DNA of 60,283 nt, filler included, from Bipalium vagum (Eukaryota): assembly GCA_037834085.1 (NCBI GenBank). It is 3 parts of 3 records of this genome, joined end to end, with 100 filler letters (N's around TTAATTAATTAA, not from the genome) between each part and the next. Parts side by side here need not be neighbours in the genome. Positions count along the whole stretch, not along the records: positions 1 to 17,623 come from JBBMKC010058319.1; 2 more parts are not named here. The stretch is one strand, 5' to 3'. Each line of letters begins with the position of its first letter. Positions within the stretch are counted from its first letter, which is position 1. Shown piece by piece: positions 1-39,600 of this stretch. The notes beneath the pieces were generated by a model, which was given only the letters and a program-made list of their open reading frames with translations, made no database searches and had not been told where the DNA came from. The position numbers were made by a program, and so were the translations under genes.

Positions 1-446
1 AAACCAAGATGAAGATGTTTTACCTTGCCCAATTCATTCTCTGCTTCAAAGATAAAGAATTTAACACAACAAAAACTACACCTTTGAGTGTAGTTTTTGT
101 TTTATTTTTAATCTTTTATATTTTAAGGCAAAACTTTCAATCCCAGACGTTTAATAAACTTGCTTGATTAATGAAAAGTTAAAATATTGATTAATTGGAG
201 TTATCAAAGGCACTTGATTAAAATTAACAAAACAAAGATTTTTTTTTTATTAATTTTCGTAATCGTTGAGTGTTCCATGTGAAAAATTAAAATTTTTGAA
301 AAATATTTATTTGAAAGTTACCAAAAGTGATAAATAATTGTGAACATCGATATATACATGAAATAAAAATATAAACAGATACAATATGACAGCGTAATCG
401 ATTTGACAATAGAGAGGTTTGGTTTCTTAACTTTGAAATAACTTAC

Positions 447-3400
447 CCGATAGACTAGCCACCTCAGCAATAAGAAATGAACAGTAACTCATCAGGAAGA
501 ATAAAGACGTTTCAAGCAAAGGATAATCTCGTAAATATGTGAATTTCGTAACAATAGCTGTCGAGATCCCAACAACGCATCCGATGGACAAAGCTCCCAG
601 AAATACTGTAAGAAACGTTCTGATTGCCAGGAGAATTTCCATTGGGTTGAAATCACCATTTGTGACAATTCCGTACTTTTCCACAGAACTGAGAATGAAA
701 ACAGAACAGTCAATAAATACACCAACAATTCGAAAAAAATCATTTATAAACATTACTTTGCCAAAACTATGGCCACTGCATCATTAAGAACGCTTTCACC
801 AAACACCAATGCATAAATGTCCACTTCAATATTGAGGTCATTGAAGATCGCCAGAACCGTTACTAAAATTTCAAAATTTTACATTGACTTTCCTAATGGA
901 CATTCAAAAAACAGATTTCACAAAAGATTCAAAGGTCATAAATAAATATTTAATCAACACTAAATTTAATCATTACTGTTTGAAGTGTATCGAAAATTCT
1001 GAAAAGGTCAATAAATGTAATAAAATCTCAAGATCAATATTCTCGGAAACGTTTGATTAACGTGAAAATTTCCGTAATGCAACATACAAATTTCGAAACA
1101 CAATCTATAAAAGAATTTCCTACTCATAGTGTGATATAGTGAGGTTCGGGCAATCGGGTTTTGCTCAGAATTACGCGATATCAGTATTAGCCGAATTATG
1201 ATAATATTGATTAAATATTATTCAAATATTTTTTGAAAATTTATTCAATAAAATTCAAAAGTATACCGAAGTATGATGTAATTTTTAATTGGTTTGAAGA
1301 ATTAATATTTTCCCTTTCCACCTCAATCAATACATCATTATTTTTAAAATATCCCTCTAACATATTCGATATGATGTAGAAAGGTTGATATAGTTTTAAA
1401 TGCTGTCAAAAGCTCCTCATTTGATATTTTGTTTCTTTAGGCTTTGTTCATTGACATCATCATTACTTATTGTTGATGCAAGACTTTCAATATATTTTAT
1501 AATTTCATATTTACTTTCGAAACAGCAATAAATAATAATATTATTTGAAAAAAAAGAAAAAGTTAGTATTACTAGGTTTCGAAGTGTTACTGATATCTCA
1601 TAAGTTTTTAGTCACATTCTATTTTATTTCATTTTATTAAAATATTTATGTGATATTTAACCACTTAATTTAATTTTCTAATGTGATGTAATAATAAAAT
1701 CGATTTTAACAAGGTTCAAAATCTTCTCATTGATCATAAGATCGAATATGATTGTACTACTTTGCAATTTTTTTTCAAAAGGACTGTCTTGTTTAATATT
1801 GCAAAGGTGTTTATTTTTGTGAAGTTTTTAGCAGCTAAGGATTATAATTATTGATTCCTCTTATCTATTCCAACTGTGGACAAATAAATCTCTTTTGAGT
1901 AAAGTATGGCTCGACCTTATTTCAGAAAACTTTAATTGATACTTTTCAAATTAACTATGTAATTATTTGGGGTTTATTTGAAAAAATACAAAATTTATTG
2001 TGAAATAAAAATAAATAAAAAAATTATAAATAAAATTTATAACCGGAAAACATTTAAAAATATTATTAAAAAGTGAAATGTCAAGAAAAAATTAATAAAT
2101 CGCCAAACAGATGTAAAATGAGAGTAGTGTACAGCATGCAACACTGTGAAAGATTGTCTATTTTCCAATTGGTAAATGAAAATTTTTGCCTAATTAAATC
2201 TGTTCTCTAAAAGATTGCCTTCCCTGTGACTTCCAATATTAAAGACAACAAAGTCTCTTTATTATCAAAGTGTTACATAACCTAGAAACCTAAGCATCAT
2301 TTCCGTTTTCAGCAATTATACACGGAGAAATATATTTATCAATGTCATTTTAGTAATTAATACATGTAATAAGAAGAAAAACACGAAAGACGCTCTCTCC
2401 TTTGCATTTAATTGAGTAAATTTAAAATTCTTGGAAAATATTTAATATTTTTCAGGGTATTCTCAATGAGCTAACTTAACATTCGTTAGAACCTTTTGCA
2501 GCGTTAAATAAATCGAAAATGCTTTATACAACTGGTTCTTAGACCAGCGTGTAAAAGGTAATGTTAATACAGTTATATTCATGACTTGTCATTTTTAATA
2601 ATAAGATAAGACCAAAACAATACATACATTCATATAGTCAACCTTCATTAATCCAAAAAAAATTATTTCGTCAATTTTTGAAAGTTTCCAGATAAATTTG
2701 ATTCATTAATCCAACACTTTAGGATTTGCAATCGAAAAGCTCTTTTTTGAATTAAATTTTTAAAGAATTTCTAAAATTTTCGGATTAATGCTGTTTAAAT
2801 ATTAAGCTTGTTTACAATTAAATTTACTTAAATTAAATATACATATGGCTAGTAAAAGAAATTACAATTCATCAAAAGGAAAAAAATGTGTACAATAAAG
2901 GAGTCAAAGAAATATGTCGCTGAGTGAATTGTCTCAAATTATCAGAAGAGAATTAAACCTGGACCTAAAAATAGGTTATCAGAAATTTTGAAAATTTTGG
3001 CGATCATACAAATAACAAATTTATTCATTATCCGAATTAATTCACAATCCGAAAGAAAATCGATTTCTAATTTTTCAGATTAATGAGGTTTGACAGTTTA
3101 TTAAATAAGATTCCCGCATTTAAGATAATTTGGTTCAATTATTCGCTTAAAAGCACAATTTGCAAACGGAAATTTTTTCAAAAAATATATTTAGAAAAGT
3201 TTCCACAAGAGAATAATTACTGTATAAAATTTGTCATAGAACTGAATAATCAAGTTTATAAAATCCGCCAAAGTTAATAATTTAAATATGGATAACGGAC
3301 ATTTTGTAATGTAAATTAATTTCTATTGGAATATTAATTATAAAATTAATCAATTTATTTTTAATTGAAAAATATATATTTGAAGAATACGATTCTTATT

Positions 3401-6400
3401 CATATTATCAACGTGGCCGACATTCTTTGGAAATAGAAAAAACAATGGAAAGCAACTTATTTCTAACACCAACTGGTAAAAGTAAAACTGTTGTGTTTTA
3501 TTTTATAGTATAAAGAACTGTACCTGGGTCCGTTGCAGATATAAACGATCCAAAGAGTAAACAATCTCCAAACCCGATCAACTTTGAAATCACCGGAATA
3601 GTTCGAGACAGACCGTAGCACAGACCTCTATTACAAACAGCAATTTAAACTTCGTATTTGCTTAATGACGAAGAATTTTCAGTAAGAATAATCATTGCTA
3701 TTTTTTTTATTTTTATTATGAGTAAGTCATCATTAAAATAATAAAAAAATTTATTAACCCACATTATGTCTGGATATTTTATATTTAATATGGATAAAAA
3801 CCTAGGATTTTCAGAAAGAAAAGTAAAGAAAAATTAAAAAAATACGGAACAAGTGAAAAAATAATAAATGACACTCAATTCAATTCAAATAATAAATAGA
3901 AATTAAAATAGAAAATTTAACGGAGAATAATTTCCAAATCGTCTTGAATTAACAAAAAAGCAATTTATTAGCGCGATAAAAAAATGTCTAAAATTTGTAA
4001 TATATTAGGTTAGTGAGTAAAAACGTCATAACTCAATGGAAAATAAACTTTATTAATCAAAATAATTTTCATGCGAGTCAATATATTTCTGCCAACCAGT
4101 GATGAGTTTTATGCCTATGGAATATAAGTCTTTTTTCCTAGAGGCAACAAACTCATCAAAGGTCATTTCAGCATCGGATCGGATTTCGAAGCACTTATTG
4201 ACCAAGAAATTATCTAGAGCCTTAAAGAAATGGAAATCTGGTGGTGAGAGGTCTGGCGAATATGTGGAGTGAGTCAAAATCTCGTAACCCAAATTGTTTA
4301 TTTTTCCTCAATGTTGTTTGTGCGACGTGTGGGCGTGCGTTGTCATGCAACAGAATTGGACCTTTTCTATTGATCAGTTTAGGACAGATGAAACGTTTCG
4401 GAGTTTCATTTCTATCCAACCATTGTGCCGATCATCGCCAATTGTCCAAGAGAATCCATTTCTCGTCACACGTCACGATTAGATTGAGAAAAAAGCAGAG
4501 AAGATGCCACTTCGAAACGATGTTTTTTGTTTTTCGCTCAGGTCATGTGGCATTTACTAATTCATCTTTTACACCTTTCCAATCTTGTCTAAGTGACGAA
4601 GTACTGTTGCATGATATACCACAAGTTCCGCTCCGATTTCCCTTGTGGATTTTGATGAATCAGCTTCGATTATCTTCTTTAATTTATCATTGTCAACTTT
4701 ACGAAAACGACCGTGACCATCCTAATCTTCAAGGGTATCATCTCCCTGACGAAACCGTTTAAACCAACGTTGCACCATACGCTGATTGACAGTTGCCTAA
4801 TAATATTGTTACTGGATATAAATATTATAAGAATTAACTTTATTTGTTGAAATACAATCACTCGTGCTTAATGGTCTTCAACTGTAAGAGACCATTTTGA
4901 TATCAGACCGTATCTTTAAATCCAAAAAATTTAGCAAGTGATATTTCATTATCATTGAGATTCAGAAATTTCATTACTTTCATAAACGTAAACACTCCTC
5001 GAATTACAAGGAAATCTGGTGGCACTAGATCGGCAATGATATATTGAATGTTATAGGATTTAATTACTTAGATTTTTCATTATTGTTTTAGTTAAAATAG
5101 ACGTAGGTGGTCTCGTATTATTTTGATGAATAACTATTTCGATTGATTAATGATGGATATCGTTAACGCATACACACATATATCCTATCGTTTTTTTGGC
5201 AATATAGATTTATAAACTTGGAAGGAATTATAATTACTTGAAGATATATTGATAAAACAAATCATAAGTTCTACAAAAACCATAACAATGTTTTTTAACG
5301 ACCTCTTTATGGGACTTGTTTTATCTAAACTTATTCATCTGGCATATATATGGATTGTTGTAATATATCCACTTTTTGTTTCATGCCACAATTCTTTTTA
5401 GGAAACGAATACCATTAGGATTTTGTAAAAGTTGAATACAGATATTCAATCACATATTTGCATGTTGGGAGTCTTATTAATCATACCGAAATTATACAAA
5501 TGACTTCACAGGTTTTCTTCTATAAAGAATATTTTTGTACTTTATTGCTTTCTAAAAGCAAATATGGTTTACCAAAAAGTGACTTATCCTCCATGTCAAA
5601 ATCAAAACTTCGAATTTTTTGAATCATTCATATACATCACTTTTTCTTAACATTGTTTTATTGGTTTTCAAAAGTTTTTGAATAGTTTCAGGCGCAGTAT
5701 GACAGTAATAATTCTCGAATCATATTTTTCATGAAAAATAAAATTATCTAAAATAATAAGATATCAATGATTTTAATTGAACAAATTTGAATTGAAAAGA
5801 GGAGTTTAAAACAAAAGTTTATTTCTGCTAGAAAACAGCATAGGTATACTATGCAAAATTCTGGAAACTTGTCGATCACCCTAATTATTCATAAAATAGA
5901 ATATTTCTTCTATTATAGGGTATTTCAATTCTATAATCTCATAATTTTAAATCTATATTCCCATTACTATATGTTTATATTTATATACGAGGTGTATAAC
6001 ATTTTTGTACTATATTATTAAAATATTGATACCTTATTCATAGGGTATTTAGATTACAAAAAATAAGAAAAGAAATAAAACCATTACCAAAGAAATCTTT
6101 GATCAAATAAAAGACATATTCCAAAACTCATCTTTTCATAGGTCTCCCGAAATCAAGCAAATTCTTATAGCCAAAGGAATAGTTCATAAATATTTAACCC
6201 CGTATTTGCCGCAACTCAATCCAATTGAGGAATTCTTTTCGTTTATAAAACCAAAATACCAGACTATAAGAAATCAGGATGCTTTCTTCAGAGTGAAAGA
6301 ATCTATTGATATGGTTATAGATAACAACAATGACTACAGTGATCAAATATTAGGGTTTTATAGACATGAGAGAATGGTTGAATTTGGCAAGAAAAAATCC

Positions 6401-9400
6401 GTTCCTATAAGATTTTATAAACAACGTGTTATATATGTTATGTTCTTATATGGCTTTTACATTTAATCTGTAGTATAGCTGAAGATTTTATTAGTACTTT
6501 TTATTTTCAAATGATGGTAATATAGATTTGAAAACATGGGAGTATGAATTTGAATTCATGAGAATATAAAATTGAAATTATGAGATTATGGAATTGAAAT
6601 TGAAAAAATTAAAATAAATGGAAATCGATGTTATTTAATAATCATTATAATCTATAAGATTTATATTCTCGATTTTTATGTTTGACGAAAAAAAATTAAT
6701 TTTTAAATAATAAATTAAATTAATTCAGATTTTATAAAATATTGATTATTTTTTGTAAAGAAAATAGAACTTATCCGGGAAGAATAATAACTCATTGGAT
6801 TTATAAATTTAGGAACAAATATTTTCAATAACAAATAGACTTATTTTAATCACGAGAGAAATAGTAAATAAATATGGACACAAGAGATAACGATTATTTC
6901 TATTTATAGTTATTTTTCAACTATTTCTTAAATAAATAATTTAATTTGATAACCGGTGCAAAAATAAGTTTTTAATAGCCTGTTAATTTATTCCAGAAAA
7001 ATTTAACAGATTTTGTTATGACTGTTATTGATCAGAATTCTCAATGAATCATCGAAATATTTTGGTCAAAGTAAAAACAATAGAAAAGTTGTTATTTTAT
7101 TGTTCTTTTCTCTTTTAAGAATTTTCTTTTTCGTTATACTTGGTTTATCTTTAAAAAATATATAACCCGATATACAAAAAATTAAGAGAAAAATTATTTC
7201 TTTGATCTTTTTAGTCAGCCTTCAAATTTCAAAAATCAATGGAAAACCTTATTAAATGCATGCTTATGTTGTTTTCTTATAACTTAAAAATTCTAAAAAT
7301 AAAATCATAAAATTTACCAAGCTATTAAAGATAATAGTTTTAAATTATTAATAATTATGATAATTAAAACAAACAAATAATACAACAGGCTAGACAATAG
7401 ACTATATACAATAAGTTAAAAAATAAAAAGATACAGTTAAATTCAAAATTGATGCTGTTAAAGACTCTCACACCGGGAATCTGATAGAGTAATATAGGGA
7501 ATAGAAGCTGGACCTACGATTTGTTCGTAAATTTTCTCTAATAACGTTAAAAGCCTCCCAACGTTGGATTGACCTATTTCTCAATAAGTTTGACCTTAGA
7601 ATTAGGTGATCAATATTGGCTGATGGTAAGTGCGTTCCTATTGGATGATTATTTTTAGATTTTAATTTTAATGTTTACATTTTCAGTTAATGTTTATTGT
7701 TTAGATTGATTAATTTTAAATGTTTTAATTTTCATTTAGATTTTTTTCATAGACTTTTTAAAATGAAAACAATGAAATTCAACACAAAAGTAGAGGGGCT
7801 TCCACAGATTGATTTTGTATTTCTGAACACAATAATCAATATTTCACAGTTAAAGTGTTATAAAAATACATACCGGATTAATTTGTAATATATAATATAA
7901 AATAATATAATAAAATGATATAATATATAATAAAATAGTTCTAAAATAAACTGATTTGTTAAAGGATTTCAAAAAAATTTAAACTTTGTCATGGAAATCA
8001 TTCGTTGAAATAATTTTATTTCAACAGCATTAAAAGGAACTTCTAAGTCGATATAATATTTTTAAAGAAGAATTAGAAGAAAATATGGGTCGCAAGTAGT
8101 GTCTTTTCTTATCTTTTATAAAATGAGGTAAAAGTTGCTATTCAGTTTGATCACAGAAACAACCTGGTACTTTTTTCTAACTGAAACATAAGAAGAGCAA
8201 TGAACGAATTTATAATCAAAAATATTTTTTAATTAAAAAACAAATTAAGAAAACGATAAATAGGTATGACACGTAAGGAAAGTGATTGAAGGTAATAAAA
8301 CAAGATTTGGAAGATGTCGCTCAATTTTTACATTGTCGACATCAAAAATGCAAATTTTGAACAAATAATATTTCAATTCAAAGCGAACTACATCTTTATC
8401 AATAAAAAGCAATTTATTAGCACGATCAAAAAATTTCTAAAATTTGTAATATATTAGGTTGGTGCAAAAATAATGTCGTTTTACAGCTATAAAAGTAAAA
8501 ACGTCATAACTCAATGGAAAATAAACTAAATAAAATAAAATAATTTCCATGAGATTTTTATCGGTTTTCAATAAATGACCACGTTATCTAGGGGTATAAT
8601 ATTAAAATAAATGGCGCTTGTAGTACTATTTTTTTTAAAGTTCGGTTATTTTTGGAATGGAAGGTGTATATTTGTTTAATAACCAATATAAAATATTAGG
8701 TTGTAACATATGAGGTGTCCCTATTTAAAACTAATTTTTCTAAGCAACATATTTTCAGTAATAATTGATGAAAATTAAAGTTTGATATATAGATTAAAAG
8801 GTTAGAAATTTCATTATTATAATAATATCACTTGTTTAAATAATAACATATATTTAAAAATATTTAGCGGTCAATATGAATAACATAATACCGACGGATT
8901 TAAGAACCATTTATTTTTATGAATGGAAATTGAAGCACAAAATATCCGAAGTGTCAGGATCATAAATTCGGCGTTTGGGTTGCATGCTACAAACAAAAAA
9001 CCATTGTACGTTGGTACAAAAAATTCAATTCTAATTATTATAGTCAAGAAATCGCAGATCGTGGAAGGCCAGTCACCACTGTTGATGATGGTGATCTGAA
9101 GACAAAAGTAGAAGAAAATCCACATCAGACTGTGCGAGACCCAGCCAGAGTGTTTTGCGTAACCACAATGATAATTTCTCGTCATTTGAAATAAATAAGA
9201 AAAGTAAAAAAGCTCAACAAATGGGTCCAGCATTCGTTGAACAATTTCCAAAAATTTCAACGTAAGGAGATTTCCAATTCCCTGCTGATCCGCAATGATA
9301 TGTGCCCATTTTCGCATCGCATTGTTATTTGTCATGAAAGTGAGTACTATATAATAATCAACGCCGATCAGCTCAATGGTTAAATGTCGATGAACCTCCT

Positions 9401-12365
9401 CGTCACATGCAGAAATCCGATTTACACCAAAAGAAAATAATGATCAATTGAGGTCTATGGGTGGAGTAATACATTATTCATTTCTAGATCCAGGTGAGAC
9501 CATAACAGCCGATAAATACTGTACAGAACTTGAAGAAATGCACCGAAGAATAATTATCAAACATCCTGCAATGACTGAAAGACATGATGTTATATTGCTC
9601 CACGACAAGGTCAGGCCACATGTTTCCAGGGTAACGTTAAATAAGCTCAAGGATTTGAAACCTTGCCGCATCCAGCTTTATCTGAAGACTTGACTCTAAC
9701 TAAAATTATCACCTGTTCAAACATTTATATCATTTTTTCTTAAATAAACCTTTCACCAAACGTGAAGGTGTCCAGAATGCCTTATTCGATTTCTTGGATT
9801 CCAAGGACACAAGGTTTTACGAAAGTGGAATAAGAAATTTGGTAATGCGATAGAAAAAGTGTGTCATTCTGACGAACCTTATTTTGATTAATAAAAACTT
9901 TTCTTGTGTCTCAATCGTTTAAAATATTTTAACCAAATGGGACATTTAATATGTTATAACCTGATAGTTAAATTAACAAGTGCGACTCGATAACCAATAT
10001 AATATGAAAATTTTTAAAATTATTGATTATCTAAAATTGAAATTTTATAAGTAAATAAAACAAGAATTTAGATTTAGTACTATTCTAAAACAAAATTCAA
10101 TTTTTAAATAATTTTATAAATAAATAAATAATAAACATAATAATATTATATTATTGAATTATTATTTTATTTAAAATTTTATTATTATTATTTTTTTATT
10201 ATTCCTGATCGCTGACTTCAGTCAATTTGAAGTTCAAAATAAAAACTTAAATAATAACAAACATTGCTAATATTACCCGATTGTCAATGATGAAAGAATA
10301 GTACCAAGAAATGCATAAGAGGCAATAGCACCGAGATTTTCAAAAAAGTGTTTCTGTAAAAGAAAATAAATAAACAATTATTATCCAGTTAAGAATAAAA
10401 TTATTTTAAAATTGGCCCTTTCTTTAGTAATATAATGAAATCATTGTTTAAATAGAATAAAAAATGAAATGAGTGAAAAATTATTTTTAAAAGTAATATA
10501 AGAACGAAAAACAAATGAGAAATAGTAAAATTGACAGAAAGAAAGAATTATTAGGAAAGAAAAGAGAAGAAAAAAATGATAATTTATGAAAAAAATAATT
10601 ATAAGAAAAATGTAAAGAATAAAAAAGAAATAAAAAAGAAACAAGGAAAATAAAACTTACAGCAACCTAATAAGGAATAAATTCTTAATCTCCTGAATTT
10701 TTTTTACGAAAAAATATTTATTCAAAATAAAATTATATAATCATTTGCATTAGCAAATCGTCGTAGATTTTCTCGAGCATCATAGGAAATATTTTTATAA
10801 GTATCATATATTCCTCTGTTGGGTTGTTTTAATCCAATCTTTTCGGAAATCTGTGAAAGTAAATTGGTCATTGAGTTTGTTTCCATTCTCTATTGTTTCC
10901 ATTCTTTCATGTAATGAGGACCCATCAGGATATCCATTTCCAGTTTGCTTCTCTTTATTTGTCATTTTGTTAATTTATAATTACTATGATTAATTAAACA
11001 AATAATTCTATTTTTCCTTTTTAAACTTCAATTTTAATATTTTTTTAAAAAATATTAATTAATAATTCAGAGTTTCTAGGTTCTTGGTGCACGTATGGCT
11101 GTAAAGATACATTTCCTCAACTCACATTTAGACTACTTTCATGATAACTGTGGTGGCATGAGCGAAGAACAAGAACAGCGATTTCATCAATAAAATCAAA
11201 TAAAGTCATTTCACATTCATCAACAGAGATTACATCCAACAAGAAAGAACAATAGTATCATTTTAAATGAATTTTCACTGATTCTTGTACTATTAAAAAA
11301 TTCGAAAACAAATATAATGAATACAAAATATATCCTCTTTACAAAAAGAAAAATATTATCACTACTAAATGCTTTTTTTCAAAATCGCGACGATCATAAC
11401 GTCGAAATTTCCTTTAAAATCAATTTTATCGATTGTTAGTTAAATATTATAAAAAAACGATTTCTGAATCATTTAATTTAATCAAGTCCTTTCATTGTTA
11501 CACAAAAAATCTCTAAAATCGATCAAACCAATAGTTTATCAAACTTGTGATAAAATATTAAAATTAATAAACATTTATAGACTATATTTAAATTAAAAAA
11601 ATATTTTTAAACATCATTAATTTGAAATTAATTAAAATTTTGAAAATCAATAAATAAAAATGATCAACATTAAGAATCAATAAATATTCGATGCGCAGCT
11701 TCGTGAGGAAATAATCAACGAGAGAAAGAGACGAAGAACAAAGCCTACCTTTTTCATATTGTATCCAGCACAAAATATGATGGGCGGCAATAACAAATTG
11801 AAGAATATCTCCACATCGAACGTGGCCTGAAACGGTGGATTTCGTTGAGAGACGATCAATGAGAGTAAATGCAATCGATACTTTTCTGTTAAAATCTTTC
11901 GAGTCTTTGTTTTCGGAAGTGAGAATGTGTCGGTACTTGTATGAATAAAAGAAAGACCTGTTTTCCATCTTGTTTGGATTCTCGAAAGTCATCCGCAACG
12001 TGATATCATCAGGCGGTAGTTGGTAGGCACAATTCCTATCCGGGATCATTTGAAATTGAGTAGTAACGTTTGTGTTATCAGATGGCAAATTGTAAAATAT
12101 TGCACCTAATATCAAGCCTGAAAATCGAAGGAATAAAATAAAGATTCAAATCGAAAATTTCTAAATCACCGTATACTAATGATAAACCAGTCTCATGAAC
12201 GAATCTCAGTCGTTTGTGTTTAAAAATCCAAATCGTTATAACCGATAGGATCAATAAAATCGAATATGACAATAAAATAAGGCAATCGTTCTTGTGATCT
12301 TGCAATAATTTCGTTTCTCGTTGAAGTTCAAATTCTTTTTCGGCTTTAATTTGACAATAACCCAT
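447..12365 (-). CDS. Endosomal-type Na+/H+ exchanger (SLC9A6/7/9 family), 5' seven exons; gene continues beyond the left edge
   Basis: Exons 12365-12170, 12117-11882, 11826-11749, 10353-10277, 3627-3524, 862-757, 688-447 all have GT-AG borders and consistent phases (1039 nt). The joined protein has NHE6/7/9 hallmarks: [114 protein letters not shown]. In-frame TGA lies 9 codons upstream of the ATG. Confidence 0.95.
2635..3096. mobile_element. Non-autonomous MITE, pogo/Tigger-like
   Basis: Imperfect ~25-bp TIRs (tagtcaaccttcattaatcc at 2635; cagattaatgaggtttgacag ending 3096), TA on the left flank, repeated internal ttcattaatcc/cggattaatg motifs, no coding capacity. Confidence 0.6.
4005..4800 (-). 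mobile_element. Degenerate mariner (DD34D) transposon
   Basis: Minus strand reads [66 protein letters not shown] with stops and frameshifts; partly deleted TIR ttaggttagtg at 4005 after TA. Confidence 0.92.
4940..5885 (-). mobile_element. Second, older mariner remnant
   Basis: Minus-strand remnants DLVPPDF (about 5010-5030) and IVA*NKKWIY (about 5365-5393, a degenerate IVTGDEKWIY); boundaries approximate. Confidence 0.65.
5923..6600 (+). mobile_element. Tc1/IS630-like (DD34E) internally deleted element
   Basis: Transposase C-terminal remnant [39 protein letters not shown] (PYSPxLNPIE motif); inverted repeats tttcaattctataatctcataatt (about 5925-5948) and aattatgagattatggaattgaaa (about 6576-6599). 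Confidence 0.75.
7360..7640 (-). mobile_element. Probable 3' end of a non-LTR retrotransposon (CR1/L2-like)
   Basis: Minus strand reads [13 protein letters not shown]...SIRFPV-x-ESL, resembling the RTxRRxxFFSxRVxxxWNSL terminus of LINE ORF2, followed by a T-rich tail; decayed. Confidence 0.4.
8404..8551 (+). repeat. Direct duplicate of 3955-4073 containing a mariner TIR plus its outside flank
   Basis: aaaaagcaatttattagc.cgat.aaaaaat.tctaaaatttgtaatatattaggtt.gtg...agtaaaaacgtcataactcaatggaaaataaact occurs at both sites; this copy keeps the full TIR ttaggttggtgcaaaaataatgtcgtttt. Confidence 0.9.
8696..9964 (+). mobile_element. Full-length (1269 bp) inactive mariner element with both TIRs and TA TSD
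   Basis: TA|ttaggttgtaacatatgaggtgtccctattt ... aaatgggacatttaatatgttataacctga|TA. Transposase starts near 8923 (MEIEAQNIR) with remnants [39 protein letters not shown] and ends YFD* near 9891; multiple frameshifts. Confidence 0.93.
11068..11193 (+). mobile_element. Chapaev(3)-like (CMC superfamily) transposase fragment in NHE intron 3
   Basis: Translates [40 protein letters not shown], matching the LGCxMSxKIHFLHSHLDFFPxNxGxxSDEQGERFHQ motif I recall for Chapaev3-type transposases. Confidence 0.75.
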
Positions 12366-13023
12366 GATTTGATTTTTATTTGAAATTAATCAAGAACGCG
12401 TCTTAAATAATGTATCTAAACAAATTGGCGATAATTTATAAATAAACCTGTATTAATAGATTTATCACAACAATTTTCCGATTTATTTTTCGTTCTGTGA
12501 CGGGCATTATTTTTAAAAAGATTTATTTTAAGTATTGTCGAATTTAAAGTAAAAATAAAAAAGGAACATAAATTAAATTTCAATAATAATTTTGATAACA
12601 AAAATTACACTAAATGTGAATAAAACACACTAAAAATCTGTCAAAATAAAAAATTAGAAAAATCAACAAAATTATAATAAATTTTAAAGCGAACCAGTAA
12701 AAATATTTTACCATAAACCTGTTAAAATATAATAATCGTGAATCAGTCAAGGTTTTTACTAAATCTTGTAAAAGGTAATTCAATAACATAGAACGAAAAT
12801 GCCGTACGCTAGTTTATATTATGGACTGAGATTATACGTGGTACTCAAGTATTATTTAAAATCTAACTCAAAAAGTTAGAGGTATGCTAGTCAAGAAATC
12901 AACATTTCAATTATTATTATTATATATGTATGGCATTTTTGAAAAGCCGAAATATCACTGGTAAATAAAGGTGTATATAAGTTATATAATGCTTATAAAA
13001 TTTTATTACAAAATAGTTATATA

Positions 13024-14093
13024 TGTTGGGTTTACACAAGACACCCCCGGGAAAAGATAACCAAGAAAAATGATTAAAAGGGTATAGATGTTAAGATTAT
13101 TAATAATATTATTAATAATTAAAATTAATTAACACTTGAAAAACAATTAAAAATTTACAGATATTTTTAGGTTGAACATACTTAGAAAATACAACAACCA
13201 TCCAAAAGTAATTTTTATTTTTAAAGAAGTCCACAAGAGGGAATTTATAAATATTAATGGTCATCAGGAAATAATTTTTAGGGAATTCTAGAGTTTTGAT
13301 AAAATTTTGAGAATTTTAAGATTAATTTTGAGATTATTTCAAGAATAATCTCCAGATGAAGATCAGTTTCAGAAAAGTATATAAGAAGAGATTCTCGCAT
13401 AATTTCACCCCTTCAGAGAATGTGCGAAATATTGTACTACGACAGAATATTGTGCTACGAGAGAAGAATCTACGACAGAATATTGTACTATGAAAGAAGA
13501 ATCTACGGCAAAGATTTGTGTTACGAGATCTACGACAGAAGATTTTTGCTACGACTATTAGCAGGAGATATTGGTCGCACGGAGGAAAATAATACCTTCA
13601 AGTATTTTAATAATTGCCGTACTTGGACTATGCTTAAATTCCCCATCAGCAGGTTATCGGTGAGGAACCGTTAGGGCTCAGACGATGGCTCGGGAGTTTT
13701 AGCGGAAAATATACTGTTTTTGTCTTATCTTATTATTTTATTTTAAGTAAACATTAATATTGATTAAAATAGTGTATAAATAATATTTTGTTTTAATTAG
13801 ACTTTGAATTAAACAATATATTTTAATTACTGTTTGATATTAAAAGTACTTATTATTCTTTTAATTAATTTGATTTTATTGTTGTTCGATTATATTTTAT
13901 TTTTCAGAAGTTGCTTGATTGTGAAACATTTCAGACATTAATTGTGATCCCAGACTTTTGATTATCCTTCTGTATTTTTGTGAAGTTCAGTGATTGTGTG
14001 ATATAAATACAATTGTTGCTTTACTGACTGTTATTATTTGCACCACCTAAGAGTTGGAGTCAGGTCTAGATTTGGTACACTAAATAGTGAACA
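13024..14093 (+). mobile_element. Solo LTR (1070 bp), probably Gypsy-type
   Basis: Termini TGTT...AACA flanked on both sides by TATA (13020-13023 and 14094-14097); internal TATA-like gtatataag near 13377 followed by a tandem-repeat block; no adjacent internal retroelement sequence. A TATA match is weak evidence in AT-rich DNA. Confidence 0.7.
13432..13556 (+). repeat. Tandem repeat inside the solo LTR: 33-bp higher-order unit (18+15 nt, ctacga core), about 3.5 copies
   Basis: ctacgacagaatattgtg-ctacgagagaagaat / ctacgacagaatattgta-ctatgaaagaagaat / ctacggcaaagatttgtg-ttacgagat / ctacgacagaagatttttg-ctacga. Confidence 0.85.
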
Positions 14094-17077
14094 TATAACA
14101 CATAAAAACGGTTAATTTATTTCATGTTATAAATGTGGAGATTGTGCCAAGATGCCGTTAGACGAAGAGCATCAAGGAAAAAAGTATTATTCAGATAAAA
14201 AACTTTTGACTTAATTTCATGTTGACTCAGACAACTTCGTTTTTCAATTTGAATTTTAATTTGCACATTGCTTAATATTTAAATATTTTATGTGATTTTA
14301 TCTACTGATCAAATAATTCTGCTTATTTTATGTAAGTTCTTCGGCGGTTGAATATAAATAAAACTGACATTAGAATTTTCATAATAAATAAAATAAAACA
14401 AAGCAAATAAATAAATTGTAAGTAAAAATATTTGGTAATCTGGGCTCATAAAATATTTAGAAATATGTTAAAAGTAATAAAAGATTTCAATAAAGGGTTT
14501 ATTGGGTCAGAAAAGTATGATGAAATAGTATGAGCATATAGTTATCAAGATAGGTTGATATAAGATGATGTTTTGTTCGGGTATTACGTAGTCGACTACT
14601 GATGGAGAAATAAATGTAGATGCCGAATTAGTTAAAATTAAAAATAGAGTGATACCTATTTCTCTGTAATTTTACAGTAAGCGTTAATGCAACTGTTGTG
14701 TTAAGTAGAAGCCAGGAAATGATAAGAACTAATCGATTCAAGTAACCAATATTTTTTACTTCTTGAGTTTTGATTTTTGTTTGAAGTTTCACTGATGTAG
14801 TTGGTTGAAAAATAGATTTTATCAAAGAAAGTCTTCACTTATCTTCAACGTGAAAGAATATTCTTTTCTTTAATTAATTTTTATTCAGTTTGTAACTAGT
14901 ATACATTTTGGTTTTATTAAATCATTTTAGTTATTTTGCAGATTTTTATTAGTCATGTGCACAGTATAATCATTTAAATCTTTTGGAGTCAGATTCTAAC
15001 TTGTATTGCAACTGAATAGGATAGTTACTCGTCTATCGATTAGTGTTTATCTTGATATGTAAATCAGCTGTAAGAACAAAATATAATAGGGATCCAATTT
15101 AATTGAGATAACTTTATATTGGAAAACTTAAACGTTTTATTTTAATAAAATCAATTTACATTTATATGAAATTCTTTATTAAAATGTATGTTATATTTGT
15201 TTGAATAATACTATTTATGCATCACATAATAATTTAATATTTCTTGTTGAAATCCTTATTGCAAAAAAGAATTACAAATACTCACATCAGGCACTGATTG
15301 TTGTATGACTATAATCATGTTGAAGACTCACACTTGACCTGTCCACCTGGCGTAATATTTGAGCTAATTTGAAACTCTTGTTGGTATTCTTGACTCACAT
15401 TATTTACCATATTTTCAAAGCTATCTTAAGAAGACATCTAAAATATTTCAAAATATGCTTTAAACATACCCTATTAGAAAACTTTCACATTACACTAATT
15501 TATCACTAAACGATTTATAATTTATTATTTAACCTATTATATAGTCCTTTTCAAATTTATTGATCCTTTTACATTCTGCTTTATATTTTATAAAATAACT
15601 AAGAAAAAAAATTAAGTCTTAAACTTAAATAATTAATCAACTTTCATAAAACAATCAAAAATCAAATTAAAAAAGTCTACAAGATTTTAATTTTTATTTA
15701 ACAAATCCTTGATAAATGATGCCAAATCAATGGCCAAATTTATTGGACAAAAGTGTCTTACTGAAACAAATATATTAAAACGAACAATTTTGAAGAACTA
15801 CCAATACGCATATTTAATTATTCTTTTGGTTCAATTTTACATTAAGAGCTATGTCCGTAATATTGTCATATAATTCTGAAACCATGTCCAATTTAGTTTC
15901 ATTTACAATTTCAACACATTTTTGAATTTTAACACACTAGTTATTTTTAGTAAAGAAGGCTTTCGTTTCATATACTAAATCTTTCAAATATTTAAAAATA
16001 TTTTCTATTCTTGACATGTCGGGACTATGAGGTGACCAATTATGGACCAATATACAGCTATTTCATCGGTTCCCATCTTCTCGTGAATTTTTGGCGAATT
16101 CAAAAAATTCTGATTCTAAAATTAGGGCGTAAAATATAATAATGCTTATTTTAAAACATAACCAAGTCTATTTTTGATTCAAATTTTCGCTGGCCATTTT
16201 TATATTTTTTAAACAATATATGCTTTTATATGTATTTATGCATATATTTATTAATTTATTATTTAATTTTAGTATTATTTACAGGGTTATGCAGAAATAT
16301 ATAGAAAAATTTTCAGAAATATATAATGGAAATGTACACTAAATAAATTATTGTCTCGCCAAGGTTTTTCTATAAAAAATAGTATGTTGCAAAAATAATC
16401 ACTTAAGACCAATTGAATTAAAATTAATGAATTAACATAATTAATTAATTACAAATTAATTAATTAAAACTTAATTTGTTGGTTTGGTTTTAATTTTAAA
16501 TTAAATTAAATTAAATTAGTTTGTTTTAATGTGAAAGAAAATAATAAAAGACAGTAAAAAGTACATTTTCAAGTTTCTTTAGAAATATTAACTCAGATTT
16601 TATATATAATATTTTAATATTATGTTTAACATATAAAATATAAACATATTTAAACAAACAATTAACACCAAACCCTTTATAGTCTATTTCTAGATAAATA
16701 GAAGTCTCTTTTTTGGCAAGAATGGCTAAATCTCAGTAAGACCAAATTCTTTTGATAATATATAAATATATAATGATAATAATAATTTTTTTATTATTAT
16801 TATAATGATATTTCTGAGTGACAGAACAACGCATTTTAGTGGATTTGGAAAGTTTTCAATTAATTTAGTCATTTAAAGCCAAAAATCAAATATAACATTA
16901 AAAATAGATTATGCAGTGAATGTGTTGATTGTCCCAATTGTCACTGGATGCTATTGTAGAAAATTGAGAGAAAAGTGATATAAATATTTCACAGAAGGAT
17001 CGGAAATTTGTCATATTAAATAATAATTTTGATAAATAATTATTGGTCTCTCAAACTGAAATCGAAAGGAAATAGAA

Positions 17078-17623
17078 ATGAGACTGGTATTCATTTCCTT
17101 GTTAATAGGGTACGCTTTCGGATTGTCGGGTAAGTCTTTTAATTCATTTCATGTAATCAAGTTGCTGCCTTATTTCCATGTTCACAGATATTATCTTATC
17201 TACCAGGAGAACAACAAATGCTGCTAATCAATATCCGAAATACACTCATCCTAAGGCTGTCGATGGAAATAGCAACGGAAATATGGAACTAGGTTTTTGA
17301 AAGTTTTTACAAAATTATTAAAAGAAAAAGTTTTGTAGGACATTGCTTTCATAGTGGAGAGGTGAATGCTGAAAAATGGTGGCTCGTTGTCCTGGACGTG
17401 GTTTCCGTGATCAGTAAGATTGAAATCTATGGAAGAACTGATTCTTGCCGTATGTTTTCAATGTTGATCGGTAATAAAAATGAATTTTAGAATGGAGAAA
17501 CAGCAAAATGACACTTCATGCCAGCATTGACAATGCAATTACCTTTTCCCCAAGTTCTAAGAAATTCTACAAGATACATTATTATCAAGGTCCACCAACA
17601 TCTCAGAATCAAATCATTTATAT
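17078..17623 (+). CDS. Secreted F-type lectin (fucolectin/FTP domain), 3' end lost in the assembly gap
   Basis: Exons 17078-17129, 17188-17292, 17339-17449, 17491->17623 with GT-AG introns of 58, 46 and 41 nt, all phase 1. Protein: MRLVFISLLIGYAFGLS (signal-like) DIILSTRRTTNAANQYPKYTHPKAVDGNSNGNMELGHCFHSGEVNAEKWWLVVLDVVSVISKIEIYGRTDSCQWRNSKMTLHASIDNAITFSPSSKKFYKIHYYQGPPTSQNQIIY. Contains AVDGN (Ca-site motif), CFH, WW-x-V-x-L and H-x27-R-x-D-x4-R. Confidence 0.88.
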
Positions 17624-17723
17624 NNNNNNNNNNNNNNNNNNNNNNNNNNNNNNNNNNNNNNNNNNNNTTAATTAATTAANNNNNNNNNNNNNNNNNNNNN
17701 NNNNNNNNNNNNNNNNNNNNNNN
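17624..17723. other. Artificial assembly spacer (44 N + TTAATTAATTAA + 44 N)
   Basis: Exactly 100 bp; the central 12-mer is palindromic and places TAA stops in all six frames; identical to 43688-43787. Confidence 0.95.
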
Positions 17724-22600: not shown

Positions 22601-25600
22601 ATATTCTGACAAAACAACAGTCTAGTGAATAGCGAACTCCGGATGAACCAAGACCTAAAAGAATTCGACAAACGTAATAAAAAATCAGGACGCTGTTAAT
22701 AGTTTTTATGAATTATCGTGGTGTAGTTCATCTTGAATTTTTTGCAGAAAGTTGTACCTTAAATAAAGATTATTATTTACAAGTTATGCGTCATTTACGT
22801 GATGCGATTCGTCAAAAAAGACCAGGTTTGTGAGCAGACAATTCATGGTTTTTATACGACGACAACTCCGCTTCTCATGATGCAATTATTATTCATGGGT
22901 TTTTATCTAAAATGTTATTATGCATTTCACTTTAGGACTTTTTTCTGTTCAATTGAGTAAAGTAACCACTTCGAGAAACCAGATTTGATTCGGTTGAATC
23001 AATAAAACAAAAATCAAAAGATGAACTTATAAACATTCCGAAGTGATTTTTGAAAAGTGCTTTCTGAATTGGATTTAACGTTGGTGCATGTGGATACTGA
23101 CATGAAGGTACTGTGAAGGAAACAAAATACATTGAGATGATTAAATAAATAATGTTTCATTATGACAGTCACATTTCTTTTTGAGCATAGTAATAGTATA
23201 TAATATTTTAAAATGTTTAAGAGTGATTTGGTAAACAGTATTAAGGGTTTTATGACCAAAATATCGATGGAAAATCTAACACTGATTCAGTATAAATAGA
23301 CAAAATATGAAATTTTTGAACCACCTATAAACAGGGGTTTTCAATATTACCTGATCAATAAATGTCAATTTAAAAGATCTTAGTAATTTTATGATATCCT
23401 TCCACAAAGATTTATAGAAAATAATTAAATGTACATTTTTCTGGCCGTTTATTTTTGTCAACAACTTTTTCCGAAACTTTCCAAATTACTCTCGCATTAT
23501 AAAATTAACTGAAATCAATTATTTTTTTAAAAAATGTTTAAATATAAACTTCTAAAGATAAAAGTGAATATAAAAAAATTTTGTACTCACAAATAAACTT
23601 GATGGTCTTGAATCTTTATCGGATATTATCGAGGAATGAATTGAGTCAGATGATGTACAGTTAACCAATTCATGCTGGGGACTGTTGGGTACACCCGGCT
23701 TGATGACAGAACCATTAGATGGTAAAATACTTGTTTCTTCACAAACTTCATTTTCATCTACAACAGGAAGAGGATCGTTTCCAATTTTTGAGCAAAAAGC
23801 TTTTTTAAAAAATTCCGTCTCTGTAATATCATGATTGCTTTCGGAATTTATATTTATCTGTTCTTTTTTATCTTCCTCCTTTATCAAAGAATACAATTCA
23901 TTGGAAAAGATCTCAATGTCCTCATTAGTGCTTTTTGATGAACACTCCCCATTTTCTGTAGGTGTCTCTGCAATCAGAGCATCTATTTTAGAAATTATTT
24001 CTGGTGAAATATAATTATTTAGTTGATTCTCTGAATATAGATCTTCATTTTCCTTCACTGTAATATCCGAAGATGAATCAATATTAATAATACTTTGGAG
24101 GGTTAGTTCCTTTTCATAATATATTGTATTGACTACACCCTGGTCACAGGCTGTTTCTTTTATGTTTTCTTGTTTTTCTTCGTCATTAATATGAGTTTTA
24201 ACCAACGGTATAGTTTCAGAAGTGATTTTGTTCAAAACTTTATTGCTTTCTTTATCATTCAGAAAATCATCAGCATCCAGACTTCGACTGAAAAAGCTGC
24301 CACCAATATCAGAATTTCTTACCAAAGGATTTTTTTTGGGAAATTTCATTAGATTATGTGAATTTATTTCGGGACTTTTTTGACAAGTTGGCTTAAGAGT
24401 ACCATACAATTTTGGTTCAACGTCAAATGACATTTCTGATACCGATGACTTACTTAAAGTCATACATGAATTATTTATAAATCTTTCTCCTAGTTTCATT
24501 TGCCGTGTGTTATTTTTCAGTTTTTCAGCAATCAGAATCGCGTCTTTCACAGAAAATATGAAACTTCCATTTCCAGTAGTGCAATTCCTTCCGGCTTCGA
24601 TTCTCAAAAATTTTTCTTTAGCTCCAAACCTAGATTCAGAAAGATTAGGAACCTTTAGGAAATTTTGGAAAATTTTATGTATTATATATCTGAGCGCACA
24701 ATAATAAAAATCTCTCAACAAATTCAGTTCAAATGAGTAAAGTTGGAAATCGCAAAATTTTATTGGGCAAATAAATGAACGAATTAAAAGACGATTAGGA
24801 ATTATCGATTTCACAAAGATACATTCAACAGAATAAAGAGAATATGCCAACATGAAACATGTTTGATATTACTTTAAAAATATTGATAACACAAAATATA
24901 ATAAATTATTATTTTATTTTAAATCTTTACAGAAAATATTCTGTTTTACAGTTAAATTAAAATAATTATTGAATTAACTTTTTCTGGGACTTTTACACTT
25001 GTTTTAATGATTTAATTACAAATTTATTGATTAAATAAAACACAATTTTTTATTAAAATTTAAAAATTATTTTCCGTAGAGATTTAAAAGGAATATTATG
25101 TTAATACTAACGATTTTATATTATAATCAATATACTTTCAATAGTGCGAGAAAATCTAGATTGTTCCTTTTTAAAATTAATAAGAAATTAATAATAAATA
25201 CTATTGTAAATAAAACAATTTAAACAAAACATTTTTTGTAACATGAAAATCCAAATAAAAAAATTTAACTATTTCATTTAATTAAATGATTTCTTATGGC
25301 AGCCTTTTATTTTGATAGATGAGAACAGCGTTATTCATCAATTAGTAATTCTTTTAATGATTGAAAATGAATAACAAATGGCATTTGAAACAAGAAAAGA
25401 AGTTGACTTGACTTCATAGGTATTTTTATTGTCTTTTAAACCATACCAGCAATCGATTGATAAACGTTTGAGTGTAGACATTAAGCAAAAATAAATAATT
25501 TTTTATTAAATTAATAAACAAAATAAATATATAATCATTAGGTGGAATTAAAATTATGGAATAATTATTTTTTATAAGTAATTATAATTATTGATTGATT

Positions 25601-36642: not shown

Positions 36643-39600
36643 ATGTACATGGAGGAACCAAAATTTGTAAGTGATAAAGAACTATTTTTCGATTTCAAAT
36701 TGATTTTCCATCAGTTAAATTTGAAAGATATATGGAATTCGATAACTGAGAAAGATAAGATCCGTCGCCAATCTGAAGACAAGTCGCTCATTGCGAAAGA
36801 CTCGATGAAAGACCTTTTGTCCAATGTGATAATGTTTGATAAAGGTTCTTTTTGTATATTTTTATTTTTGCTAAATTGTTGACTGGATTTTTGTTTTTAA
36901 GATGGCCAAATGCAGAAACTGAACAATGAATTGTTCTTGAACAACAATGTACACCAAGATGATGAAATTCTGTTGAATTTTACTTCCCCATATAACTGGG
37001 ACTCGAAACTGGAAACAGGAACGTTGTCACTATCCAAAATGAACAACAACAACAGGCAAAACTCTTTTAGTTCGTACAGTGGTGACGAATTTACTTGTTC
37101 CAAATCCGAAACTCCGCTTCCCGATAACCGATTCAATTTTGATCATTATTCCAATGACTTGCTCTCGCCTAATTTTCAAGATGGCGTCAATGATAAAATC
37201 TTGAACACCATTTTGGATAATCTTATGGAAGCATCGAATCAAAAGGATTTCTTTTCAAAAACCAATGTTATCAATGTTATCAATAGTTTATTGAAAAAGA
37301 AATTAACAAAACAACAGTATCAAAAGATTCAAAACGTCGTTTTAACGATTCATGGAAACTGTAATAATTATTACACAGGTAGCCATTTTTCTGACTGAAG
37401 ATTGGGGGGCACAGGAACTTTTTTTAGATATCAACAGATACTTTTAAAACATATTTTCAATGATATTGATATTTAAGTTGTTAAATCACATCTCCCCAAT
37501 TATTTATTTATAAAGTCTTGAAATAAAATAAAAATTACCTATACAAAAAATAACGTTTAAAATTTTGCCAATTACAGATCCCTTACAAGGATTCTACAAC
37601 CAGGAATTGTTAATGATGTTGTTAAAGAATCAACCGGCAGCTTATTTTCGCAAAGAAAGAGTTGTAGAGCCACTAGTTAACAGAACAGAGCAAGTGAAAC
37701 CGTTTGATCAATGCAATTCGAGCCATATTTCCTTGAAAGATGAAATTGCAAAACTCTCGATTTCGTACAGAAATATGATCGGAGTTTTGGAAAGTGATAT
37801 TGAAAAAGCTGCCGCCCTGTATCGCACTTCAGCAAGTAAGTTGTGATAAAGATTTTTGTAAATTCATCTCGTTTTTGAAGTGTGTACATTAATACAAATT
37901 ACAATTATTTAAACCTGTTGAGTCTTTTTAGTGAGCATTTAAGATTCATTCAGTCATACTTTGTATTTTTTCATATTTTGCTAGTGGTTCCACTGACTAA
38001 GTATTTTTATACATTTAAGCTGCTATGGCACAGAAAAACGAAGCAGCATACGAATGGTCAGGAAAATTACCTACAACAACCTACAAGTTGTGTCAGTATT
38101 CACGAAAAGTGTTCTTAGGTGGAGTTCCTTGGGATAGTAGTGAAAGTGACCTTGTTTCCGCTTTTATCAAGTTTGGATATTTATCTGTCATGTTTCCTCA
38201 AAAAGATCTTAATGTATCAATAAGACACTCGGTTTCATCAAATAGTTTGAAAGGTTTTCATTTTTTATTAACTTTTTCAATTTCAGTTCCATTAACAGGC
38301 TATTGTTATATAATATTTGAAACAGAAGATTCTGTAAATCGATTACTAAGTCATTGTGTGAAAAATGAAACAAATAATGGTGACTTTTACAAAATATCTA
38401 GTCCGAAATTTCGATCAAAAGATGTACAAGTTATTCCGTGGATGATTCAGGATAGTCAGTACTGCAGACAAGGATGTCAAAAACCAGATTCAAAGAAAAC
38501 GGTCTTCGTCGGTGCCTTGCATGGAATGATGACCGCATTTGGCTTAGCTAGTGTTATGAATGAGTTATTCGATAATGTTATATTCACGGCCTTAGATACA
38601 GACAAATATAAATATCCAATAGGTATGAATACTATTATATATTTTTAAAAATAATCACATGCTACTAGGTTCTGGTAGGGTGACCTTTTCAAGTCAAAAG
38701 AGCTATATGAGGGCTGTAACTGCTAATTTTATTCATATCAAAACTGCAAAATTTAGTAAAACGGTAAGTTAGGATAATTGATAACAATTGATGTGTTACT
38801 ATTTATATAAGGTGTATATAAAGTAAATATCCGATTTTAAAATGTTATATCGTAAATTCATTTAATCGAAGATGACACAAAAAATTAATATTTTTGACTG
38901 ATAATTATTACAGAATGATTGAGAAGGAGATAAGTAAAAACTATTCTGTTCAACTTTTAAAGAATTTATTAATAATAATAATTATTATTATTTTTTCCAT
39001 AAATTATAAAAGTCGATTATTAACTCCATATACCTAATAAAATATAAAAATATTTATAATCGTTGAGATCTACTAAACCTACCGTATAACTACCAAAAGA
39101 TAATTAAACCTTCAAAATGACTTAACTGAAATTAGTTGATAAATTGCACATAGGTGATTTTTACTGATTTTTCAAGTCAATCTCGTAGTTTTTTAGATAA
39201 TAACCCCAGAAACAAATCCTGGTGAAATTATGATGCAGTTATCGTAGATCGCTTAATAAAAATATTTCGGTTGAAATTTGATTTAACTGTTGCATTTATA
39301 AGTTTTCATAATTCTGAAAATCTGGACAGTTTTGTGCTCAATGGAGGCACTTTCCTGCGACCTAGCAAGATCGATAACATATCATGAAATAGCGCCATCA
39401 ATTCTGTGATGTTTGATACTTTTGTCAAAAGATTTGGATTAAGGTCAAACTGTGTTCTCATAGAGTCGTTACTGGCTTTCAGATTAGCGCCACCAGCCAC
39501 TTGATCACTTGCGTCGATTCGTGTGGTAGCTTGGTAAATGTGGTTCGGCTAACATCTGCTGGTCTTCAAAAAATCGTCCAAAGATGCGCAAAAGAACTAA

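Follow-up and report, generated by a model that had tools for sequence, protein, structure and literature searches.

The window, by which is meant the whole stretch of 60,283 nucleotides of Bipalium vagum DNA that was analysed, consists of three parts with a GC content of 27%, and its positions 1-17623 represent the entire contig G000:C58319. At the end of this contig, on the forward strand, lies a gene whose product belongs, by its sequence motifs, to the family of F-type lectins (FTLs) and has a known domain architecture. Four of its exons fall in the window and two beyond it:

17078-17129, + strand: exon 1, the ATG and a 17-codon hydrophobic leader, a predicted signal peptide
17130-17187, + strand: intron 1, 58 nt, GTAAGT..CAG, phase 1
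17188-17292, + strand: exon 2, with the first strand, the CDR1 and CDR2 loops of the pocket, and the cation motif AVDGN
17293-17338, + strand: intron 2, 46 nt, GT..TAG, phase 1
17339-17449, + strand: exon 3, Cys55, His57, the WWLVVLD strand, Arg85-x-Asp87 and Ser-Cys; matches PF22633 with E 0.04, below the cut-off
17450-17490, + strand: intron 3, 41 nt, GTATGT..TAG, phase 1; interrupts the R-x-D-x4-R motif
17491-17623, + strand: exon 4, Arg92 and the central strands; 16 further bases lie on contig C23834 (L003)
17624-17723, no strand: filler N's between parts, an artificial joint and no gap in the genome
Beyond the window, on C23834: intron 4, 48 nt, phase 0
Beyond the window: exon 5, the C-E-F-E-V strand, which closes the lectin domain
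Beyond the window: intron 5, 48 nt, phase 1
Beyond the window, on C245510 or C222944: exon 6, the PAN module and the stop

The four exons, the phase-1 GT-AG introns of 58, 46 and 41 nt and the open joined frame described in the first-pass annotation were all borne out. Its statement that the gene ends in a gap was mistaken, since the N's that begin at 17624 are filler and the rest of the gene is carried by contigs that overlap: one end of C23834 matches exactly the final 77 bases of the window's contig, and its opposite end has an exact 77-base overlap with both C245510 and C222944, which are 95% identical in exon 6 and one or the other of which would supply the 3' end of the window copy. The spliced frame is open across the exons, and the full model has six exons and 235 amino acids. 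The C-terminal strand that had been predicted is present in exon 5, and the further domain suspected past 17623 takes the form of a probable PAN/apple module in exon 6. A gene that ends after exon 5, with a Cys-containing tail and a stop, was considered and rejected, because the apparent Cys codon consists of a T and the GT donor of intron 5 and because in the paralogs the next exon encodes PAN.

The exon-intron model is beyond what chance would produce, because intron positions and phases are the same in 75 intact models of paralogous genes, all of which have the same arrangement of five exons behind the signal exon. It is supported also by the public protein P0004, which reads through introns 3 and 4 at the same sites, and by the match of the family profile to eel agglutinin that is described below. 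Median intron lengths in the first-round models were 43-49 nt. The hydrophobic 17-residue leader occupies a separate exon that is kept across the paralogs (exon 1 was found in 93 models, in 71 of which it has 17 codons).

The following features were also observed in the window:

427-780 and 11588-12389, - strand: sodium/hydrogen exchanger exons, upstream of the lectin gene and on the opposite strand (PF00999 match for 427-777, remaining exons judged from the ORF list)
23552-24868, - strand: a long exon, weakly matched by an IRS-type PTB domain (E 8.9e-5)
38019-38648, + strand: an RRM_7 domain, CPEB-like, with one match in the genome
6053-6466, 9394-9693 and 45813-46205: DDE transposase remnants (DDE_3, Transposase_1)

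The lectin domain and the PAN module

The fucose motif of the FTL family, as defined in PMC5712786 together with the chemistry of the triad and the immune roles of these lectins, is complete in the window gene, where it is formed by His57, Arg85, Asp87 and Arg92 with the spacing H-x27-R-T-D-x4-R; for the His-to-Arg distance PMC5712786 gives 24 and PMC5297725 gives 26. The cation motif h-h-D-G-x is present as AVDGN, and Cys158 and Glu159, which are additional ligands, are found as well. These motifs, together with Ser-Cys and VVL, are as the first-pass annotation had reported them, and its identification of an F-type lectin, probably secreted, with an intact triad is upheld.

The correspondence with the features of eel agglutinin (AAA) was established from the motifs and a partial alignment to the 1k12 structure. 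On this mapping the vicinal Cys82-Cys83 pair, the Cys108-Cys124 disulfide and the Asp64-Arg131 pair of AAA are absent, and Val stands at the Asp64 column. Cysteines occur in the window gene only at positions 55, 89, 158, 201, 205, 211 and 222, so that the substitution of Ser-Cys for Cys-Cys gives a total of seven and leaves one unpaired. Loss of the vicinal pair is no bar to membership of the family, since the same loss is reported in other FTLs (PMC5712786). At the calcium-ligand position equivalent to Ser49 the window gene has His, alone among the 75 models, 69 of which have Ser; replacements of this Ser are described as frequent in FTLs (PMC5712786).

Exons of the window gene taken singly score under the Pfam cut-offs, and 15 of 16 exon-3 peptides match PF22633 below the cut-off. 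A family profile (A2) constructed from 13 natural frames matches eel agglutinin 1k12 with E 9.5e-6, and matches also the pneumococcal fucose modules, the lectin domain of lectinolysin and FBP32. When the spliced lectin part is compared with a canonical FTL domain, the score is 107, while 500 shuffled sequences reach 55 at most. The fold was modelled on a paralog frame covering exons 3-5 with the introns read through, which gave a pLDDT of 71 and fell in the jelly-roll galactose-binding class with a TM-score of about 0.5. The first structural row for this model is SUN2, with 2j22 and 3cqo within the top three, and SUN domains and other jelly rolls score like F-type lectins.

Exon 6 probably encodes a small PAN/apple domain, for which sugar binding is putative. 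All 90 aligned peptides from exon 6, a set preselected for at least four cysteines, share an invariant four-cysteine core, C-x3-C-x5-C-xn-C, and 60 of the 90 match the PAN_1 profile at E<=0.01 (best E 7.8e-7). The window gene's own exon 6 matches with E 0.0016 and 18.7 bits, the cut-off being 21.4. For the exon 6 model (pLDDT 82.6) the top six structural rows are all apple/PAN domains, at Z of only 4.2-5.5, and a second structure search also returned apple/PAN domains, at E>0.8.

A large family and its divergence

The window gene is not a lone hidden gene but belongs to a set of over 100 similar genes in the Bipalium vagum genome. Genome matches numbered at least 106 of 140 candidates for exon 3 and at least 116 of 133 for exon 5, and at least 99 of 127 and at least 88 of 116 for two exon 6 queries. 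Most, though not all, of the loci with exon 3 and exon 5 matches were taken to build, by script, 152 models or fragments, from which the analysis set of 75 intact exon 2-6 models (68 with exon 1) was drawn, the misbuilt L029 and L084 being left out. The family proteins have a median length of 238 amino acids and a pI of 8.7. Inflation of the count by the nuclear genome of a second animal or by general haplotype doubling was considered and rejected on a single test, in which one CPEB exon gave one match. Paralogs, possibly in tandem, had been anticipated, and they exist, some of them adjacent on one contig: G000:C2364, C68890, C222834, C245430, C213600 and C22593 carry 2-3 FTL-PAN copies each, in both orientations and 2-9 kb apart.

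Two further observations were made in the course of the genome survey. The first concerns the donor of intron 4, which is GC in 27 of 96 modelled copies (for example L119, L122, L057, L076, L082 and L091), in 23 of them in the unusual form GCACT or GCATT. For most, no in-frame GT is available instead, and 25 of the 27 would disrupt the frame if left unspliced; this pattern suggests that weak GC-AG donors are used at intron 4 across the clade. The second is that the assembly holds three distinct intact COX1 genes, L060, L061 and L062 (on G000:C253947, C246471 and C253320), in addition to many broken COX1 copies. L060 requires AAA to be read as Asn and ATA as Ile at conserved sites, that is, translation table 9, a code common to flatworms and echinoderms; L061 is of similar type though clearly divergent, and L062 is of a different type, perhaps from prey or contamination. 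Taken with this code, the low GC content and very short introns point to a planarian-type flatworm as the likely source.

Retention of the binding residues is uneven across the family. Cys55, Cys158 and Glu159 are retained in all 75 models and the Asp of the cation motif in 73, while the strict fucose triad is found in 21 of 75, the window gene included, and is missing from 54. The triad is concentrated in the VVLD-type group to which the window gene belongs (18/27, as against 3/48 elsewhere). Val at the VVL column occurs in 24 of the 75 models, VVL being a trait of the clade, and Ser-Cys is shared with the sister copy described below and with L016; the earlier proposal that VVL and Ser-Cys signal a shifted specificity of this one gene is therefore not upheld. 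Stop codons are present in some paralogs (5 of 106 exon 3 matches).

The sister of the window copy lies on C190804, which also joins C23834 and bears an 88% identical copy whose upstream DNA is unrelated to that of the window copy. The window copy and C190804 are two recent paralogs which have been collapsed by the assembly into one middle piece, C23834. Contig depth in run X1 fits this collapse, being 14.5-22 on the pieces specific to the window copy and 48 on the shared piece. X1 consists of contigs of unknown kind, perhaps the source of this very DNA; no splice joints were seen in it, which counts neither for nor against expression. That the two are alleles was considered and rejected, as their flanks cease to align some 60 bases upstream and some 180 bases beyond the stop. 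From exon 2 to exon 3 they differ by 15-30%; in intron 3 and exon 4, where the two were assembled independently as far as 17623, the difference is 0-1%. That they are identical from intron 4 to intron 5 is so by construction, C23834 having been used in both models. Between the two copies pN is 0.044 and pS 0.144, which indicates constraint after duplication.

The family as a whole is under purifying selection, and this constraint is the best indirect evidence that the genes are spliced and expressed. Over sister pairs (16 of 25 pairs, those with pS below 0.35) dN/dS is 0.27 for the lectin framework, 0.46 for PAN and 1.11 for CDR1, a gap-rich loop whose boundaries, like those of the other loops, were drawn by hand from the description of AAA. 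When CDR1-4 are pooled over the same pairs the value is 0.57 (bootstrap 0.44-0.74), and in a codon model of all 75 the estimate is 0.48 over CDR1-4 and 0.27 elsewhere. The pocket loops are relaxed or diversifying, and relaxed constraint explains them as well as positive selection does; positive selection across the loops is not shown, the dN/dS of CDR1-4 being below 1 in both the sister pairs and the codon model.

The PHI test for recombination is significant in 7 of 7 subclades, with p up to 0.014, which suggests gene conversion among the copies, though chimeras made in assembling collapsed copies could account for part of these signals. A systematic exchange of the segment that encodes the loops was considered as well and is not supported, since the divergence of intron 2 does not exceed that of the remaining introns (Wilcoxon p 0.94 over 16 pairs).

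The same genome holds a second expansion of F-type lectins. A search with PF22633, in which 150 of 228 candidates were scored, returned at least 110 places, and about 100 of these lie on contigs other than those of the FTL-PAN family (G000:C184952, C10351, C21518, C134343, C211062 and others; L149-L174). In a sample of 22 domains extracted from 26 loci each domain is one uninterrupted frame, often with 2-4 in tandem, and the second Cys pair is retained; the strict fucose triad occurs in 0 of the 22. In a sampled FastTree with 45 public domains the FTL-PAN family and the second family form separate clades which are sisters (support 0.81).

Functional interpretation

The reading favoured here, to which a probability of roughly 0.62 is assigned, is that the window holds part of a gene with six exons, itself among over 100 paralogs, for a predicted secreted FTL-PAN protein of 235 residues which would bind terminal fucose, and that the family constitutes a repertoire of glycan-binding proteins. 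The protein would be exported by means of its leader, and its jelly-roll domain would be clamped by a Cys55-Cys158 bridge and by the cation site, with the axial 4-OH of fucose held by His57, Arg85 and Arg92. The fast-changing loops on the pocket side may set the fucosylated glycans preferred by each copy, and the PAN module may offer a second binding surface or a surface for self-association, so as to allow cross-linking. By analogy with other such families, the whole would serve as a germline-encoded set of glycan-binding proteins on the body surface or in mucus or gut, possibly for defence against microbes or for the handling of prey, renewed through duplication and through exchange of sequence between copies, with the canonical fucose site altered in most of them. 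Evidence against this reading is that the window copy departs from AAA at several stabilising positions, namely the calcium Ser, the salt-bridge Asp and the disulfides.

A more ambitious extension of this interpretation is offered tentatively, and is thought doubtful as it stands. It holds that the animal has more than 200 F-type domains in two sister expansions, and that in the FTL-PAN family a conserved scaffold would be homogenised by gene conversion while the pocket loops diversify, so as to give an anticipatory recognition of glycans in mucus, in which the many members that lack the triad would read sugars other than fucose. If this were true, the germline repertoire of more than 200 F-type domains would exceed the amphioxus set.

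The family might instead have a structural or adhesive part in mucus or in the extracellular matrix, its members acting as cross-linkers of glycans in gliding, in adhesion or in the building of capsules, and not as receptors for pathogens. Small, basic, predicted secreted two-domain proteins of the size and pI given above would suit such a role, as would the absence of the strict triad from the majority of models, and parallels can be drawn, by name only, with the 'Fucolectin-4' of the planarian matrisome (bioRxiv 10.1101/2020.09.11.293936) and with the acoel fucolectin-6 (PMC8097308). The clustering of variation in the loops of the sugar pocket is better fitted by diversified recognition, and the structural role is on balance considered unlikely.

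It is more improbable that the window copy is a recent duplicate which is silent or has lost the binding of fucose or calcium. The near-identical sister with its unrelated flanks, the His that the window copy alone has at the calcium-site Ser and the stops in some paralogs are all compatible with such a fate, but the frame, every splice site and the triad are intact, and the ratio of pN to pS against the sister indicates that the copy has been constrained since the duplication. Least probable of the alternatives is a reproductive role in gamete recognition or as egg-capsule proteins, for although the oyster bindins are F-type lectins diversified through positive selection and recombination (PMC5712786), and signals of recombination are found in the Bipalium family as well, bindin diversity comes from one single-copy gene with tandem domains (PMC5712786), whereas Bipalium has more than 100 separate single-domain genes under purifying selection overall.

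The single gene is itself ordinary, since F-type lectins are known from planarians and the FTL-PAN combination from molluscs and cnidarians; what is notable is the large and diversified family, which is likely a repertoire for sugar recognition. With more than 100 intact-looking, constrained copies whose pocket loops vary and about 100 domains of the second family, it would rank among the largest FTL repertoires described, and its small exons, which individually score below the Pfam cut-offs, conceal the FTL-PAN family from scans based on ORFs. Should they prove to be expressed in mucus or gut, the genes would be candidates for the recognition of microbes or prey in a flatworm, an animal without adaptive immunity, and the family would amount to a natural library of lectin variants.

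Relatives and known systems

In a library of 1.84 billion representatives, the best 150 matches include five short close relatives, P0004, P0005, P0015, P0039 and P0052, which are singletons from public assemblies with the intron positions preserved. These public 'proteins' appear to be ORF calls that read through the introns of genes of the same family elsewhere; P0005 carries a PAN tail. Word-based homolog searches returned no relatives or the query alone, and no named orthologue. In the ESM Atlas, P0005 adjoins two clusters that combine FTL with PAN_1, a mollusc cluster labelled 'fucolectin-like' (211 members, 253 aa, feature score 0.95 for P0005) and a cnidarian F5/8-NedA-PAN cluster (68 members, 230 aa, feature score 0.92), so the FTL-PAN architecture is not new. 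The likeness of these proteins to the Bipalium family consists in the same size and Pfam pair, and the Bipalium family is set apart by the absence of the second FTL disulfide and by its position as a clade of its own when compared with the 45 sampled public domains.

Published accounts of F-type lectins place planaria among their holders, and PAN domains are not mentioned in the available text of that source (PMC5712786), nor are planaria or flatworms in that of PMC12221842. Nematodes have proteins which combine a C-type lectin with PAN (PMC5297725), rotifer species have 0-3 secreted FTLs each (PMC8878817), and 42 F5/8 proteins are reported from a mussel (PMC5549309). Closer to Bipalium, a 'Fucolectin-4' of Schmidtea belongs to the experimental planarian matrisome (bioRxiv 10.1101/2020.09.11.293936), a table row for Schmidtea reads 'fucolectin' (PMC4969599), and fucolectin-6 is a marker of acoel epithelial cells (PMC8097308). 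Expansions of planarian lectins and lectins of planarian mucus are described in bioRxiv 10.1101/2025.01.09.632098 and PMC13034038, the main text of which does not name F-type lectins; the Bipalium FTL families may be among the land-planarian lectin expansions of the former. In the literature surveyed, no description of an FTL or FTL-PAN expansion in flatworms was found.

The best structural matches for exon 6 are the apple/PAN lectins Sarcocystis SML-2, Eimeria MIC5 and Toxoplasma MIC4, from which it differs in having the four-Cys core only, and these matches are weak, with Z up to 5.5. The lectin domain is most directly compared with eel agglutinin (1k12) and striped bass FBP32 (3cqo), with which it has in common the hhDGx motif, the His..Arg-x-Asp-x4-Arg triad and the disulfide pair that runs from the first Cys to the C-E (Cys50-Cys146 and Glu147 in AAA); a jelly-roll fold like theirs is suggested by the paralog model. 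The His-Arg spacing is one residue longer than that of AAA (27 as against 26 in the 1k12 alignment), the vicinal and second disulfides are missing, and His replaces Ser49 and Val replaces Asp64. The C-terminal PAN module and the presence of more than 100 gene copies further distinguish the Bipalium gene from both fish lectins. In the scale of their diversification the families resemble the amphioxus FTL expansion, whose more than 70 FTL clusters are called extraordinary in PMC5712786, and the oyster bindins, which are likewise large and diversified FTL repertoires; the Bipalium families differ from these in the fixed two-domain layout that is maintained in more than 100 genes and in the accompanying second family of about 100 domains.
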